Numbered from the stretch's first letter, positions 1 through 6,990 are shown. The stretch is 6,990 bases of DNA from a virus (IMGVR_UViG_2744054964_000003), one strand, 5' to 3'. The notes: a model not told the origin generated them from the letters alone. Translations and numbers: made by a program.

Positions 1-111
1 CAGCCAGAAAACACCCGACTTAACGCTGTGCTGGATTATATTGACGCGGTGACGGCAACAGATACCAGCACAGCGCCGGATGTTATCTGGCCTGAACTGC
101 CGGAGGCGTAG
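1..111 (+). CDS. Tail fiber assembly protein, C-terminal fragment (5' end lies outside the window)
   Basis: Frame 1 is open from position 1 to TAG at 109-111 and translates to QPENTRLNAVLDYIDAVTATDTSTAPDVIWPELPEA. The ...DTSTAPD..WP..P... ending closely resembles the lambda Tfa C-terminus as I recall it (...VDTSTAPDIEWPAVPVME), and the position directly upstream of FI is where P2 has gene G. Confidence 0.7.
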   Translation, partial: QPENTRLNAVLDYIDAVTATDTSTAPDVIWPELPEA

Positions 112-120
112 GCCATTCAA

Positions 121-165
121 TATCTGGAGCACTGGAAATTTCGACAAGTTCCAGTGCTCCAGATA
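121..165. repeat. Perfect 17-bp inverted repeat (arms 121-137 and 149-165, 11-nt spacer); putative RNA stem-loop or protein-binding palindrome
   Basis: TATCTGGAGCACTGGAA at 121-137 is the exact reverse complement of TTCCAGTGCTCCAGATA at 149-165. It lies 10 nt after the upstream stop codon. No U-tract follows on either strand, so it is not a canonical intrinsic terminator. Confidence 0.8.
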
Positions 166-296
166 ATCGACTGTGTGGGAACAGGCAGGACGATTGCTGG
201 CTGCGAGGGAATCACGTCAACGTGTGGCGCTGATTTTTGATATTGACCTGTCCACGCTCTATAAAAAATTCGCCTCATCAGCGACAAAGAATAAAT

Positions 297-355
297 TGTG
301 CCATCCCTCAGCCAACCGGGACAAATAGCCTGACATCTCCGGCACACATGAAAAT
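297..355 (+). promoter_or_regulatory. Candidate Ogr-dependent late promoter for the FI operon (imperfect activator dyad plus weak -10)
   Basis: P2 late promoters carry a TGT-N12-ACA dyad centred near -55. The only near match upstream of FI is TGT(297-299)-N12-CCA(312-314), one mismatch. A weak -10-like GAAAAT at 350-355 is spaced consistently with it. Assignment is tentative. Confidence 0.25.
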
Positions 356-387
356 ACCACTCACCCATTAACCACGGAGTTAAACGG

Positions 388-1578
388 ATGAGTGACTATC
401 ATCACGGCGTGCAGGTGCTGGAGATTAACGACGGCACCCGCGTCATTTCCACCGTATCCACTGCCATTGTCGGCATGGTCTGCACGGCCAGCGATGCGGA
501 TGCGGAAACCTTCCCCCTCAATAAACCGGTGCTGATTACCAATGTGCAAAGCGCAATTGCAAAGGCCGGTAAAAAAGGCACGCTGGCGGCGTCGTTGCAG
601 GCTATCGCTGACCAGTCAAAACCGGTCACCGTTGTTGTGCGTGTGGAAGACGGCAGCGGCGACGACGAGGAAACGAAACTCGCGCAGACCGTTTCCAATA
701 TCATCGGCACCACCGACGAAAACGGTCAGTACACCGGACTGAAAGCCCTGCTGGCGGCGGAGTCGGTAACCGGTGTTAAACCGCGTATTCTCGGCGTGCC
801 GGGACTGGACACCAAAGAGGTGGCAGTTGCACTGGCATCAGTTTGTCAGAAGCTGCGTGCTTTCGGGTATATCAGCGCATGGGGCTGTAAAACCATTTCC
901 GAGGTGAAAGCCTATCGCCAGAATTTCAGCCAGCGTGAGCTGATGGTCATCTGGCCGGATTTCCTCGCATGGGATACGGTCACCAGTACCACCGCCACCG
1001 CGTATGCTACCGCCCGTGCGCTGGGTCTGCGTGCCAAAATCGACCAGGAGCAGGGCTGGCATAAAACGCTGTCCAACGTTGGGGTGAACGGTGTTACCGG
1101 CATCAGCGCATCTGTATTCTGGGATTTGCAGGAGTCCGGCACCGATGCTGACCTGCTTAACGAGTCAGGCGTCACAACACTGATTCGCCGTGACGGTTTC
1201 CGCTTCTGGGGTAACCGTACCTGCTCTGATGACCCGCTGTTCCTCTTTGAAAACTACACCCGCACCGCACAGGTACTGGCCGACACGATGGCTGAGGCAC
1301 ACATGTGGGCGGTGGACAAGCCCATCACCGCAACGCTGATTCGTGACATCGTTGACGGCATCAATGCCAAATTCCGTGAGCTGAAAACAAACGGCTATAT
1401 CGTGGATGCGACCTGCTGGTTTAGCGAAGAATCCAACGATGCGGAAACCCTCAAGGCCGGAAAACTGTATATCGACTACGACTATACACCGGTGCCCCCT
1501 CTCGAAAACCTGACCCTGCGCCAGCGCATTACCGATAAATACCTGGCAAATCTGGTCACCTCGGTTAACAGCAATTAA
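388..1578 (+). CDS. FI: Contractile tail sheath protein (P2 gpFI)
   Basis: 396-aa ORF with ATG start and GGAG Shine-Dalgarno at 376-379. Length and N-terminus (MSDYHHGVQVLEINDGTR...) match P2 FI as I recall it; position is immediately upstream of the tube gene. Confidence 0.93.
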   Translation: MSDYHHGVQVLEINDGTRVISTVSTAIVGMVCTASDADAETFPLNKPVLITNVQSAIAKAGKKGTLAASLQAIADQSKPVTVVVRVEDGSGDDEETKLAQTVSNIIGTTDENGQYTGLKALLAAESVTGVKPRILGVPGLDTKEVAVALASVCQKLRAFGYISAWGCKTISEVKAYRQNFSQRELMVIWPDFLAWDTVTSTTATAYATARALGLRAKIDQEQGWHKTLSNVGVNGVTGISASVFWDLQESGTDADLLNESGVTTLIRRDGFRFWGNRTCSDDPLFLFENYTRTAQVLADTMAEAHMWAVDKPITATLIRDIVDGINAKFRELKTNGYIVDATCWFSEESNDAETLKAGKLYIDYDYTPVPPLENLTLRQRITDKYLANLVTSVNSN

Positions 1579-2441: not shown

Positions 2442-2593
2442 CGTTTCCAAAAAATCTCTCGGTCGATGACCTGATGGCGGATGTGGCAGTGATATTTCAC
2501 TGGCCGCCATCAGAACTGTATCCCATGAGCCTGACCGAACTCATCACATGGCGCGAAAAGGCGCTCCGGCGAAGCGGAAACACGAATGAGTAA
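2166..2593 (+). CDS. E+E': Tail assembly chaperone frameshift fusion (P2 gpE+E'); -1 frameshift at 2414-2420
   Basis: 85 codons in the E frame plus 57 codons in the -1 frame (VAELGAVTFPKNLSVDDLMADVAVIFHWPPSELYPMSLTELITWREKALRRSGNTNE) give 142 aa, the size of P2 E+E' as I recall it. The arrangement parallels lambda G/GT. Its stop overlaps the T start. Confidence 0.8.
2414..2420 (+). other. Programmed -1 ribosomal frameshift slippery heptamer T_TTT_TTG
   Basis: Heptamer is in X_XXY_YYZ register relative to the E frame (codons GGT 2412-2414, TTT 2415-2417, TTG 2418-2420). The -1 frame is open from 2420 to TAA at 2591-2593. Confidence 0.8.
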
Positions 2594-5033
2594 CAATGTA
2601 AAATTACAGGTATTGCTCAGGGCTGTTGACCAGGCATCCCGCCCGTTTAAATCCATCCGCACAGCGAGTAAGTCGCTGTCGGGGGATATCCGGGAAACAC
2701 AAAAATCACTGCGCGAGCTGAACGGTCACGCATCCCGTATTGAGGGATTCCGCAAGACCAGTGCACAGCTCGCTGTGACTGGTCATGCACTTGAAAAGGC
2801 TCGGCAGGAAGCCGAAGCCCTTGCCACACAGTTTAAAAATACCGAACGTCCGACCCGTGCTCAGGCGAAAGTGCTGGAATCCGCAAAGCGTGCGGCGGAG
2901 GACTTACAGGCGAAATATAACCGCCTGACGGATTCCGTTAAACGCCAGCAGCGGGAACTGGCCACTGTGGGAATTAATACCCGCAACCTTGCACATGATG
3001 AGCAGGGACTGAAAAACCGTATCAGTGAAACCACCGCACAACTTAACCGTCAGCGTGACGCGCTGGCGCGTGTCAGTGCGCAACAGGCAAAACTTAACGC
3101 AGTAAAACAGCGTTATCAGGCCGGAAAGGAACTGGCCGGAAATATGGCCTCGGTGGGCGCTGCCGGTGTGGGGATTGCGGCGGCGGGAACGATGGCCGGA
3201 GTTAAGTTGCTGATGCCCGGTTATGAGTTTGCGCAGAAAAACTCAGAATTGCAGGCCGTGCTCGGAGTGGCAAAAGACTCCGCCGAAATGGCCGCACTCC
3301 GCAGGCAGGCGCGCCAGCTCGGTGACAATACTGCCGCCTCGGCGGATGATGCAGCCGGTGCACAGATTATCATTGCGAAAGCCGGTGGAGATGCTGCGGC
3401 TATTCAGGCGGCAACGCCGGTCACGCTGAATATGGCACTGGCGAATCAGCGGTCGATGGAAGAAAACGCGCAACTGTTGCTGGGGACTAAGGCATCCTTT
3501 CAACTGTCAAATGATGATGTCAGTCATGTGGGCGACGTGTTGTCGGCAACGATGAATAAGTCGGCGGCTGATTTTCAGGGACTCAGTGATGCACTGACTT
3601 ATCTCGGCCCGGTTGCGAAGACGGCAGGTGTAAGTCTTGAGCAGGCAGCAGCCATGACAGGTGTGCTGCATGACAATAACATCAGGGGGTCAATGGCGGG
3701 TACGGGTAGCAGTGCCGTTGTCACCCGATTACAGGCTCCGACAGGGAAAGCATGGGATGCACTCAAAGAGCTTGGCGTTAAAACCTCGGACAAAAAGGGA
3801 AATATGCGCCCGTTGTTCACCATTCTGAAAGAGATTCAGGCCAGCTTTGATAAACACAAGCTGGGAACGTCTCAGAAGGGGGAATACCTTAAAACCATTT
3901 TTGGTGAGGAAGCCCTGAAATCAGCGAACGTTTTACTGGCAGCGGCAGCAAGCGGAAAACTGGATACGCTGACCGCCACGCTGAAAGCCTCGGACGGTAA
4001 AACGGAAGAGCTGGTTAAAATCATGCAGGATAACCTCGGCGGTGACTTTAAGGAGTTTCAGTCCGCTTATGAGGCGGTGGGGACTGACCTGTTTGACCAG
4101 CAGGAAGGCGCACTGCGTAAGCTCACACAGACGGCCACAAAGTATGTGTTAAAACTCGACGGCTGGATCCAGAAAAACAAATCACTGGCGTCAACCATCG
4201 GCCTCATTGTCGGTGGCGCGCTGGCGCTGATTGGCATCATCGGTGCAATTGGTCTTGTAGCCTGGCCGGTTATCACCGGCATCAATGCCATTATCGCGGC
4301 AGCAGGCGCAATGGGGGCAATCTTCACGACGGTTGGCAGTGCTGTTATGACGGCCATCGGGGCGATTAGCTGGCCGGTTGTGGCCGTGGTGGCCGCCATT
4401 GTCGCCGGGGCGTTGCTTATCCGTAAATACTGGGAGCCTGTCAGCGCATTCTTTGGCGGTGTGGTGGAAGGGCTGAAAGCGGCATTTGCGCCGGTGGGGG
4501 AACTGTTCACGCCACTTAAACCGGTGTTTGACTGGCTGGGTGAAAAGTTACAGGCCGCGTGGCAGTGGTTTAAAAACCTGATTGCCCCGGTCAAAGCCAC
4601 CCAGGACACCCTGAACCGTTGCCGTGACACGGGCGTCATGTTCGGGCAGGCACTGGCTGACGCGCTGATGCTGCCGCTTAATGCGTTCAACAAACTGCGC
4701 AGTGGTATTGACTGGGTACTGGAAAAACTCGGTGTTATCAACAAAGAGTCAGACACACTTGACCAGACCGCCGCCAGAACTCAAGCCGCCACGTATGGCA
4801 GCGGTGGTTATATTCCGGCGACCAGCTCTTATGCAGGTTATCAGGCTTATCAGCCGGTCACGGCACCGGCTGGCCGCTCTTATGTAGACCAGAGTAAAAA
4901 CGAATATCACATCAGCCTGACGGGTGGTACTGCGCCGGGGACACAGCTCGACCGCCAGTTACAGGATGCGCTCGAAAAATACGAGCGGGATAAACGTGCG
5001 CGCGCCCGTGCCAGCATGATGCATGACGGTTAA
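2586..5033 (+). CDS. T: Tail tape measure protein (P2 gpT)
   Basis: 815-aa ORF directly after the chaperone pair. N-terminal region is rich in Q/R/A/L/E (coiled-coil-like); a long Gly/Ala/Ile-rich hydrophobic segment lies at about 4185-4423; both are typical of tape measure proteins. Confidence 0.93.
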   Translation: MSNNVKLQVLLRAVDQASRPFKSIRTASKSLSGDIRETQKSLRELNGHASRIEGFRKTSAQLAVTGHALEKARQEAEALATQFKNTERPTRAQAKVLESAKRAAEDLQAKYNRLTDSVKRQQRELATVGINTRNLAHDEQGLKNRISETTAQLNRQRDALARVSAQQAKLNAVKQRYQAGKELAGNMASVGAAGVGIAAAGTMAGVKLLMPGYEFAQKNSELQAVLGVAKDSAEMAALRRQARQLGDNTAASADDAAGAQIIIAKAGGDAAAIQAATPVTLNMALANQRSMEENAQLLLGTKASFQLSNDDVSHVGDVLSATMNKSAADFQGLSDALTYLGPVAKTAGVSLEQAAAMTGVLHDNNIRGSMAGTGSSAVVTRLQAPTGKAWDALKELGVKTSDKKGNMRPLFTILKEIQASFDKHKLGTSQKGEYLKTIFGEEALKSANVLLAAAASGKLDTLTATLKASDGKTEELVKIMQDNLGGDFKEFQSAYEAVGTDLFDQQEGALRKLTQTATKYVLKLDGWIQKNKSLASTIGLIVGGALALIGIIGAIGLVAWPVITGINAIIAAAGAMGAIFTTVGSAVMTAIGAISWPVVAVVAAIVAGALLIRKYWEPVSAFFGGVVEGLKAAFAPVGELFTPLKPVFDWLGEKLQAAWQWFKNLIAPVKATQDTLNRCRDTGVMFGQALADALMLPLNAFNKLRSGIDWVLEKLGVINKESDTLDQTAARTQAATYGSGGYIPATSSYAGYQAYQPVTAPAGRSYVDQSKNEYHISLTGGTAPGTQLDRQLQDALEKYERDKRARARASMMHDG

Positions 5034-5047
5034 GGAGGTGACGAAAA

Positions 5048-5527
5048 ATGATGCTCGCGTTAGGTATGTTTGTTTTTATGCGCCAGACGCTGCCACACCA
5101 GACCATGCAGCATGAATCAGATTATCGCTGGCCGTCAAATTCCCGTATCGGTAAACGGGACGCTTTTCAGTTTCTCGGTGTGGGTGAGGAAAACATCACG
5201 CTTGCCGGTGTGCTTTATCCAGAGCTGACCGGCGGCAAGCTGACGATGACCACGCTCAGGCTGATGGCTGAGGAAGGCCGGGCGTGGCCGTTGCTGGATG
5301 GCACCGGCATGATTTACGGCATGTATGTCATCAGCAGGGTGAGTGAAACAGGGAGTATTTTCTTTGCAGACGGCACACCCCGGAAAATTGATTTTACGCT
5401 GTCGCTCACCCGCGTTGATGAATCACTGGCCGCGCTTTATGGCGATATCGGTAAACAGGCGGAATCGCTCATCGGTAAGGCTGGCAGTATGGCGACTAAA
5501 TTCACGGATATGACGGGGGCGGGATAA
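5048..5527 (+). CDS. U: Tail protein gpU (P2 GpU family)
   Basis: 159-aa ORF. Strong AGGAGG Shine-Dalgarno at 5033-5038 immediately after the T stop. Size and position match P2 U. Confidence 0.88.
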   Translation: MMLALGMFVFMRQTLPHQTMQHESDYRWPSNSRIGKRDAFQFLGVGEENITLAGVLYPELTGGKLTMTTLRLMAEEGRAWPLLDGTGMIYGMYVISRVSETGSIFFADGTPRKIDFTLSLTRVDESLAALYGDIGKQAESLIGKAGSMATKFTDMTGAG

Positions 5528-6690
5528 TGCTGGATGCACTGACATTTGATGCAGGCAGTACGCTGACGCCGGATTACATGCTGATGCTCGACAGCAGGGA
5601 TATTACCGGCAATATCAGCGACCGTCTGATGAGTATGACCCTGACGGATAACCGGGGCTTTGAGGCTGACCAGCTTGATATTGAACTGAACGATGCCGAC
5701 GGGCAGGTCGGGCTGCCGGTTCGTGGCGCTGTCCTGACGGTGTATATCGGCTGGAAAGGTTTTGCCCTGGTATGCAAAGGGAAATTTACCGTTGATGAGG
5801 TTGAACACCGGGGCGCACCGGATGTGGTCACCATCCGCGCCCGGAGTGCAGATTTTCGCGGGACGCTCAATTCCCGCCGTGAAGGCTCCTGGCATGACAC
5901 CACGCTCGGTGCGATTGTTGAGGCAATAGCCTCCCGTAACAAGCTGGAAGCCAGTGTCGCTCCGCCACTGGCCGGAATTAAAATCCCGCACATCGACCAG
6001 TCGCAGGAGTCCGATGCGAAATTCCTGACCCGTCTTGCTGAACGCAACGGCGGTGAGGTGTCGGTAAAAATGGGAAAACTGTTGTTTCTCAAAGCGGGGC
6101 AGGGGGTGACGGCCAGCGGTAAGAAAATCCCGCAGATTACCATCACCCGCAGCGACGGCGACCGTCATCATTTTGCGATTGCTGACCGTGGAGCCTACAC
6201 CGGCGTAACGGCAAAGTGGTTACACACCAAAGACCCGAAACCACAAAAGCAGAAGGTAAAACTGAAACGCAAAAAGAAAGAAAAACACCTGCGCGCACTG
6301 GAGCACCCGAAAGCAAAACCGGTCACGCAGAAGAAAGCGCCAAAAGTACCGGAAGCGCGCGAAGGTGAATACATGGCCGGTGAAGCTGACAACGTTTTTG
6401 CCCTGACTACGGTATATGCCACAAAAGCGCAGGCCATGCGCGCCGCTCAGGCAAAGTGGGATAAGCTGCAACGGGGCGTTGCGGAGTTCTCCATCAGTCT
6501 GGCTACTGGTCGGGCAGATATTTACACGGAAACGCCGGTCAAAGTGTCAGGCTTTAAGCGCGTCATAGACGAGCAGGACTGGACAATCACTAAGGTGACA
6601 CATTTTCTGAATAATAGCGGTTTCACGACGTCCTTAGAGCTTGAGGTCAGGCTTTCTGATGTGGAGTACGAAACAGAAGATGATGAGTGA
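5527..6690 (+). CDS. D: Tail/baseplate hub protein gpD (P2 late control gene D family)
   Basis: 387-aa ORF whose ATG (5527-5529) overlaps the U stop TAA (5525-5527). Size and position after U match P2 D; contains an internal lysine-rich linker. Confidence 0.9.
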   Translation: MLDALTFDAGSTLTPDYMLMLDSRDITGNISDRLMSMTLTDNRGFEADQLDIELNDADGQVGLPVRGAVLTVYIGWKGFALVCKGKFTVDEVEHRGAPDVVTIRARSADFRGTLNSRREGSWHDTTLGAIVEAIASRNKLEASVAPPLAGIKIPHIDQSQESDAKFLTRLAERNGGEVSVKMGKLLFLKAGQGVTASGKKIPQITITRSDGDRHHFAIADRGAYTGVTAKWLHTKDPKPQKQKVKLKRKKKEKHLRALEHPKAKPVTQKKAPKVPEAREGEYMAGEADNVFALTTVYATKAQAMRAAQAKWDKLQRGVAEFSISLATGRADIYTETPVKVSGFKRVIDEQDWTITKVTHFLNNSGFTTSLELEVRLSDVEYETEDDE

Positions 6691-6771: not shown

Positions 6772-6990
6772 ATGTTTCATTGTCCTTTATGCCAGCATGC
6801 CGCACATGCGCGTACAAGCCGCTATATCACTGACACGACAAAAGAGCGTTATCACCAGTGTCAGAACGTGAATTGCAGCGCCACGTTCATCACTTATGAG
6901 TCGGTACAGCGATATATCGTGAAGCCGGGAGAAGTCCACGCCGTAAGGCCGCACCCGTTGCCATCAGGGCAGCAAATTATGTGGATGTAA
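6772..6990 (+). CDS. ogr: Ogr, zinc-finger late gene transcriptional activator
   Basis: 72-aa ORF starting MFHCPLCQHAAHARTSRYITDTTKERYHQCQNVNCSATF..., with a C-x2-C-x22-C-x4-C motif; matches P2 Ogr as I recall it. GAGGTG Shine-Dalgarno at 6760-6765, 6 nt before the ATG. Stop TAA at 6988-6990 is the last codon of the window. Confidence 0.9.
   Translation: MFHCPLCQHAAHARTSRYITDTTKERYHQCQNVNCSATFITYESVQRYIVKPGEVHAVRPHPLPSGQQIMWM

Follow-up and report, generated by a model that had tools for sequence, protein, structure and literature searches.

The described systems closest to this locus are the invertible segments of the Gin type, represented by the G segment of phage Mu with its invertase Gin, and also by the C segment of P1 (Cin), the P segment of e14 (Pin) and Hin of Salmonella. 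In the Mu/Gin arrangement, the fibre gene is split by a 26-bp crossover site and is followed by two convergent sets of fibre tip and assembly genes; beyond these come the second site, in inverted orientation, and next to it a serine invertase. The genes for Gin, Hin and Cin contain a Fis-dependent recombinational enhancer in their 5' part. Inversion of this kind has been shown experimentally in P2-like prophages of EPEC (PMC4272514). The place concerned, known in P2 as the Z/fun position, is a hotspot of variable content, and DNA invertases with inverted neighbouring genes are frequent there (bioRxiv 10.1101/2024.10.15.618418). Most pseudogenes of P2-like prophages are very small intergenic remnants, often located in hotspots and rarely related to defence, and truly empty P2/P4 hotspots are rare (PMC13586616).

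The stretch of DNA analysed here (the window, 6,990 nt) covers the tail and late genes of a P2-like prophage; positions 1-700, the part compared, are 100% identical to E. coli 19SZHZ869Rt (NZ_CP080085.1, L003). It opens with the 3' end of tfa, a G-like tail-fibre assembly gene present as the expressed-orientation copy (1-111, plus strand, TAG stop at 109-111). The last 36 codons of tfa match Pfam Caudo_TAP with 37.8 bits, and RefSeq annotates the gene as a tail-fibre assembly protein (L003 5509-6111). Further downstream, ORF calls, Pfam and RefSeq place the intact tail sheath gene FI (388-1578, plus strand, ATG at 388), FII (1591-2109), E (2166-2441), T (2586-5033), U (5048-5527) and D (5527-6690). 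The window closes with ogr (6772-6990, plus strand; Pfam Ogr_Delta, 76.9 bits), which encodes a zinc-finger activator acting on the promoter pF. The E ORF and a second one overlapping it (2438-2593) mirror the E/E+E' arrangement of P2, which is read through a programmed -1 frameshift.

Exactly 276 nt (112-387) separate the tfa stop from the ATG of FI, and this interval has the same position as the P2 Z/fun hotspot between G and FI. The original prediction had seen it as an unoccupied cargo position without a convincing ORF, holding only a 17-bp palindrome and late-promoter signals. Its dimensions were given correctly, and so was the lack of a convincing ORF: three ORFs of at least 40 aa overlap the interval, one of 83 aa on the minus strand (117-368) and two on the plus strand, of 51 aa with a GTG start (173-328) and of 44 aa (237-371), and neither the ORF scan nor the RefSeq annotation places an intact gene in 112-387. 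None of the three gave a match in PADLOC, and the 83-aa and 44-aa ORFs had none in Pfam or PHROGs either. An Rfam search over 1-700 (E <= 1) returned only a chance match to mir-87, with 17.4 bits against a gathering score of 49. No promoter was found by the sigma-70 scan, as expected for an activator-dependent late promoter, and the terminator scan gave 3 weak sites against 1.0 +/- 1.2 expected, the palindrome not being among them. The position is thus unoccupied in the sense that it carries no intact accessory gene. It is not vacant: by homology, 112-295 (184 of the 276 nt) consists of residues of former cargo, joined at 168/169, and only 296-387 (92 nt) is backbone. We consider it very probable that the interval is what remains after a single old, non-homologous deletion, which destroyed a tail-fibre inversion switch of the Mu Gin type.

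The evidence for a deletion comes from comparison with intact relatives. When window 1-700 was searched by megablast against 50,697 phage records, none of these covered the whole region; the best phage matches (KC618326, pro483, S164 and MET_P1_103_31) start only at 168, and the feature under them is a DNA invertase. In pairwise BLAST, window 1-168 aligns with KC618326 (L001) 3569-3737 at 91% identity and window 168-700 with 5001-5533 of the same phage at 95%. The sequence is collinear with intact relatives on either side of a single point, which places the deletion junction at 168/169. The segment missing relative to KC618326 is 1,263 bp (3738-5000), and relative to an IMG/VR relative (L089) it is about 1,192 bp; a single nucleotide at the junction (C) is common to both parental sequences. 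Both this microhomology and the size range of 1,192-1,263 bp are read from proxies, the parental allele being unsampled, and even the nearest intact invertase 3' ends match the remnant at no more than about 94.5% identity. All carriers examined (L003, L006-L010, L136 and L019) have one identical junction.

The intact relatives indicate what the missing segment contained. In KC618326, the region between tfa and FI holds a minus-strand tail-fibre assembly gene convergent with tfa (hereafter tfa'), a short minus-strand gp53-like fibre-tip gene, and a plus-strand DNA invertase. The block absent from the window, in KC618326 coordinates, holds tfa', the gp53-like tip, which falls wholly inside it, and the 5' part of the invertase. 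A 31-nt sequence also occurs twice in KC618326, at 2610-2640 and 4474-4504, as a perfect inverted repeat; it contains the 26-bp sequence TTCTCGCATACCTTGGTTTGGGAGAA, which we take to be a crossover site of the Gin/Hin/Cin/Pin type. The left copy of the repeat lies inside H and the right one about 65-70 nt upstream of the invertase start, so placed that they flank about 1.86 kb with two convergent tip and tfa sets. The architecture is the same as that of the Mu G segment. The source genome of the window has one exact copy of the crossover site, inside H (L003 5025-5050) and about 1 kb upstream of the window. No copy was found in the window with up to 3 mismatches allowed, and no second crossover site or invertase was found in the source genome.

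Directly right of the junction lies a fragment of a Gin-type serine DNA invertase (176-328, plus strand). It corresponds to the C-terminal helix-turn-helix, residues about 148-197 of 197, and is annotated in RefSeq as a helix-turn-helix pseudogene without its N-terminus. Homology to the invertase starts at 169, and the remnant ends at a TAG stop (326-328). It matches Pfam HTH_7 with 27.8 bits against a cut-off of 23.8, over profile positions 11-44 of 45, and PHROG_125 ("DNA invertase") at 9.3e-9, and it agrees in 45 of 50 residues (90%) with positions 148-197 of the intact invertase encoded by strain Ec-RL2-1X (L005). This 197-aa protein contains both Resolvase (175.6 bits) and HTH_7 domains by Pfam and matches the structure of Mu Gin (3UJ3) at E = 1.5e-93. 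The Resolvase catalytic domain with the serine nucleophile is absent from the window ORF, where Pfam finds HTH_7 only, and the 5' 433 nt of the invertase gene are absent from the window. GenBank gives the invertase of KC618326 as 495 nt (4572-5066), whereas the L005 equivalent starts at 4568, has 594 nt and reads on to a stop inside pF; with this 4-nt offset of the start, the KC618326 invertase may be frameshifted or mis-annotated.

We compared window 169-387 with 11 intact alleles and found 10 positions at which the window base occurs in none of them; at nine of these the intact alleles are unanimous, and at the tenth, 193, they are split between two states. Six of the 10 derived positions fall within 176-328, where they produce four amino-acid changes (G->R, G->D, P->A and L->S) and two synonymous ones, a 4:2 ratio of replacement to synonymous changes that is as expected without constraint. 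The G->D change sits in the turn between the helices. Two carriers of the same junction, strain 3908 (L010) and PEC422 (L136), keep the ancestral base at most of the 10 positions, which argues that the changes accumulated stepwise after one deletion. In strain 3908 the invertase remnant is also frameshifted.

On the left side of the junction are the last 25 codons of tfa', the inverted second tail-fibre assembly gene (83-157, minus strand), annotated in RefSeq as a tail-fibre assembly pseudogene "missing N-terminus". Nucleotide homology to tfa' extends past 157, up to 168. The frame of the remnant ends in SSAPDIEWPTPPAVQAR followed by the stop codon, the same as in intact tfa' genes, and the intact tfa' of KC618326 has 147 aa and matches Caudo_TAP at 3e-30. 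Of an alternative, oppositely oriented set of fibre tip and assembly gene, the window keeps no more than these 25 codons. In the scar lineage, the tfa' frame is further broken by a 1-nt deletion of a bulged G. Judging from their sequences, the tfa' and invertase remnants are both decaying and non-functional.

Could the invertase itself have removed the segment? An invertase-mediated deletion was considered and rejected. Since neither breakpoint resembles a crossover site and the overlap at the junction is only 1 nt, the deletion appears to be a product of illegitimate recombination and not of a site-specific reaction. The ancestor would have carried the constant part of H, the crossover site, and the plus-strand fibre tip and tfa, and next the minus-strand tfa' and alternative tip, the second crossover site, the Gin-type invertase, pF and FI. 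The deletion would have run from codon 25-28 of tfa' (counted from the stop) to about codon 145 of the invertase. With it would have gone most of tfa', the alternative tip together with the right crossover site, and the invertase's catalytic domain. Judging by Gin, Hin and Cin, the enhancer in the 5' part of the invertase gene would have been lost as well. What it left would be non-functional wreckage (112-295), followed by an intact Ogr-dependent pF (296-387) driving FI-FII-E-T-U-D. The fragments would have decayed neutrally since then, the palindrome being a passenger from the tfa' coding sequence. With no invertase and a single orphan crossover site inside H, the fibre gene is presumably locked in one orientation and its receptor specificity fixed.

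Set against systems of the Mu/Gin type, the window keeps only the C-terminal helix-turn-helix domain of the invertase; the deletion has stripped it of the catalytic domain and the right crossover site, as well as of the alternative tip and almost the whole of tfa', and it cannot work as an inversion system. The helix-turn-helix domain is the only one of the tested Gin/Hin/Cin/Pin features that it retains, and we regard it as a pseudogenised remnant, not as a member of this group. Unlike the segments of Mu or P1, it belongs to a tail module of the P2 type, with pF immediately downstream. The loci most similar to it are those of EPEC E2348/69 (PMC4272514), KC618326, pro483 and S164, which are P2-like, occupy the same place between the fibre-assembly genes and FI, and show 95% nucleotide identity; they are complete, whereas the window is a deletion derivative.

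Other origins of the interval can be imagined. It could be a pristine slot that was never occupied, part of a minimal P2-like backbone with nothing but a terminator palindrome and a late promoter, as its shortness, its lack of an intact gene and the variability of this position among relatives might suggest. This is extremely improbable: the 184 of 276 nt discussed above align at 91-95% identity with the 3' ends of two genes of which relatives keep intact copies, the HTH_7 score exceeds the Pfam cut-off, and the GC-rich hairpin with T-run that precedes the Ogr site in the non-invertase types is absent here. Hardly more credible is that the 83-aa minus-strand ORF is a real small gene filling the slot. 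It is the longest ORF of the interval and is open in L006-L009, but it crosses the junction and so cannot predate the deletion, it runs antisense to both pseudogene fragments, its ATG lies inside the pF 5' UTR, and neither Pfam, PHROGs nor PADLOC matches it. In strain 3908, which has the same junction, a stop codon interrupts the frame. We regard this ORF, from its sequence context, as a spurious product of chance. The original prediction would have been overturned by a conserved and expressed ORF here, or by relatives that never carry cargo at this junction; the ORF is not conserved and relatives do carry cargo, and neither objection applies. We also considered that the 51-codon ORF (173-328) is retained as a functional protein consisting of the helix-turn-helix only, for example a decoy occupying the crossover sites of related invertases. 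No stop codon interrupts its frame between the junction and the native stop, HTH_7 is still recognisable, and it is conserved in 27 near-identical carriers; that conservation, however, reflects the near-identity of the carriers and not selection. The four amino-acid changes, including G->D between the helices, fall at sites invariant in the 11 intact alleles, and the frame is shifted in strain 3908. Upstream of 173 we see no Shine-Dalgarno-like sequence, the sigma-70 scan shows no promoter-like site, and RefSeq already treats the region as a pseudogene. A retained function is accordingly very unlikely, and we favour the reading of the interval as a deletion scar.

The palindrome was correctly recognised in the original prediction. 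It spans 121-165, with 17 perfect pairs (121-137/149-165) and an 11-nt loop, and its 20-nt arms (121-140 and 146-165) are 95% complementary. The RNA of 105-180 folds with -34.5 kcal/mol (z = -5.47), and none of 200 shuffles was as stable. No T-run follows the hairpin, and by the scan it does not resemble an intrinsic (Rho-independent) terminator. A check had been suggested of whether the palindrome coincides with cargo boundaries. It marks neither a cargo boundary nor an insertion signal: we found that it lies within the coding sequence of tfa' (YLDALE.../...SGAPDI), at the 3' coding end of this gene, and that a quasi-palindrome is present there in about 100 intact alleles. The palindrome is the code for the C-terminal tfa' motif YLDALELVDTSGAPDI, the two halves of which are nearly complementary by chance. 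Among 120 IMG/VR loci, defined by containing the tfa stop context, all but a handful have the quasi-palindrome with one bulged base, and the tfa' frame is open over at least 139 codons in about 97. Over 39 distinct intact alleles, 93.8% of cells are paired, and covariation does not exceed that of shuffles, of which 115-201 in 500 score at least as high as the real data; the demands of the coding sequence suffice to account for this conservation.

Once the bulged G is lost by the 1-nt deletion in the scar lineage, the stem is perfect, and the RNA energy falls from about -24.7 kcal/mol in strain 3908 to -28.5 kcal/mol. Polarised against the 39 intact alleles and the intermediate carriers L010 and L009, the changes that followed the deletion comprise this 1-nt deletion only, and perhaps two changes close to the loop. 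An apparent "directional perfection" of the palindrome by 7 coordinated changes relative to KC618326 was dropped, as most of these states are already found in intact genes. It is possible, if doubtful, that the palindrome is kept by selection as an RNA or DNA element, either as a 3' stabilising or terminating hairpin of the V-W-J-I-H-tfa late transcript or as an insulator before pF; such a role would be compatible with the deletion scar. The palindrome begins 10 nt past the tfa stop and is very stable, tfa contains its mirror image (24-75), which on the other strand comes just after the tfa' stop, and the scar lineage has a single indel, which takes away the bulge and makes the fold more stable. 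Against this, there is no T-run, so that the terminator scan missed it, the covariation is no greater than that of shuffles in the 39 intact alleles with coding constraint alone able to explain the pairing, and the bulge loss is one mutation and as such statistically untestable. We thus prefer to see the palindrome as a remnant of tfa' coding sequence.

The hairpin in the 3' end of tfa has arms at 24-46 and 53-75, and the minus-strand RNA of 15-90 folds with -30.9 kcal/mol (z = -5.39). Each of the two hairpins (24-75 and 121-165) lies just downstream of the stop codon of its convergent partner, so that either could act as the 3' hairpin of the gene that is expressed after inversion.

The junction lies close to the palindrome, and the 120 IMG/VR loci contain 7 independent classes of collinearity loss inside tfa'. 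Four of these break at positions equivalent to window 136-168, in the palindrome or at most 3 nt from it, the scar described here included (breakpoint loci L052/L054/L103, L086, L068/L083/L088/L128 and L019). With breakpoints spread evenly along tfa' (roughly 420 nt), such clustering would have a binomial probability of roughly 0.5%, an estimate made on an anchor-ascertained sample. The count is confounded by this ascertainment bias of the search anchor and by the edge of the conserved C-terminal block, which is a natural mosaic boundary, and several of the breakpoints are prophage ends beside an integrase. We consider it unlikely, on this basis, that the quasi-palindrome near the tfa' 3' end is a structure-prone breakpoint hotspot that repeatedly truncates or freezes fibre-inversion modules. 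On that reading, the 1-nt bulge deletion could be a natural template-switch correction of the quasi-palindrome.

The late-promoter signals, which had been noted as putative, are borne out by homology to the annotated pF of P2. The binding site of the Ogr activator maps by alignment to 291-319 (plus strand; from P2 17555-17583), with half-sites TGT (297-299) and CCA (312-314) separated by a 12-nt spacer, and it overlaps the last codons of the invertase remnant. Both half-sites, 12 nt apart, are conserved in all eight aligned relatives. The exact TGT-N12-ACA motif does not occur in the window and is missing from P2 pF too, both having the imperfect TGT-N12-CCA. The transcription start of the F operon is placed, by homology with P2 17626-17628, at 362-364 (plus strand), and window 350-387 is identical to P2. 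By this homology, the activator site of the locus has partial dyad symmetry and precedes the start by about 55 nt, and the gene for the cognate Ogr/Delta activator lies at the opposite end of the window. Between the Ogr site and the pF -10 region, an AC->CA change at 347-348 is derived in most scar carriers; it is seen in none of the 11 intact alleles and not in P2.

The interval shares with the P2 Z/fun hotspot a right boundary at the pF activator site and contents that vary among relatives. The description of this locus as variable was well founded, since six relatives have six different contents between the fibre-assembly gene and FI. In an alignment of the 150 nt that precede FI in eight relatives of six content types (P2 Z/fun, L-413C, fiAA91-ss, P24A7b, D8 and the invertase type, plus the decayed OW968011, L011), homology is universal from about window position 296 (TTGTG...), at the left edge of the Ogr site. 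By this alignment, the only hotspot boundary that can be transferred to relatives is the right one, at about 296, about 92 nt upstream of FI. In the five non-invertase cargo types and in the decayed OW968011, a hairpin with a T-run (GGCGGGC-N5-GCCCGCC-TTTT) is found immediately upstream of the pF Ogr site (L002 2965-3000 and the equivalents in L012-L015 and L011), and it probably serves as a terminator that shields pF from transcription of the cargo. The element is absent in invertase-type phages, the window included, where the 3' end of the invertase takes its place. The window further differs from the Z/fun-type loci in having no intact cargo gene and no defence-family match in PADLOC.

The last 11 codons of the invertase frame and its stop (296-328) are encoded by the conserved upstream region of pF and overlap the Ogr binding site. 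The sequence GACAAATAG, which includes the invertase stop codon, is conserved in P2 and P24A7b, both free of an invertase, and L-413C, fiAA91-ss and D8, which likewise have no invertase, carry TCAAATAG in its place.

The value of these results is mainly corrective: what had been described as a cargo-free reference backbone becomes the deletion scar of a tail-fibre inversion switch. The proposal that this is a minimal backbone is not sustained, two thirds of the interval being the residues of tfa' and the invertase, and the locus makes a poor reference for defining insertion boundaries, as its left edge is cargo residue and only the right edge, at about 296, is transferable. Using this prophage as a Z/fun "empty-site" reference would misplace the left boundary and take about 184 nt of wreckage for backbone. 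Two points can be reused: the right boundary of the hotspot at the Ogr site, and the lack of the terminator-like hairpin in invertase-type phages. The scar fits the description of the pseudogene remnants in P2/P4 hotspots (PMC13586616), with the difference that its former function can be identified and was an inversion switch, not a defence system. It represents ordinary gene decay of an already known kind, and both fragments are pseudogenes in RefSeq.

Two other forms of decay were found. In E. coli MNCRE44 (L004 4928-5035), about 411 bp are deleted inside the invertase, and tfa' and the alternative tip are kept. In OW968011 (L011 283-462), 180 nt of tfa' are left, interrupted by a stop codon; invertase sequence is lacking altogether, and the remnant adjoins a pF upstream region of the terminator type. 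Because these forms are independent, loss of the switch in P2-like prophages appears, from the three decay forms seen, to be recurrent, and each loss would fix the fibre in one orientation.

Some part of window 1-700 is matched in 3,216 of 5,426 complete E. coli genomes. The invertase-pF-FI arrangement, counted where at least 80% of an 833-nt probe was matched, occurs in 547 of them. The scar was found in none of the 50,697 phage records, and its junction in none of the GTDB species representatives. It is present in 29 of the 5,426 complete E. coli genomes, and the junction was detected in five IMG/VR prophage contigs.
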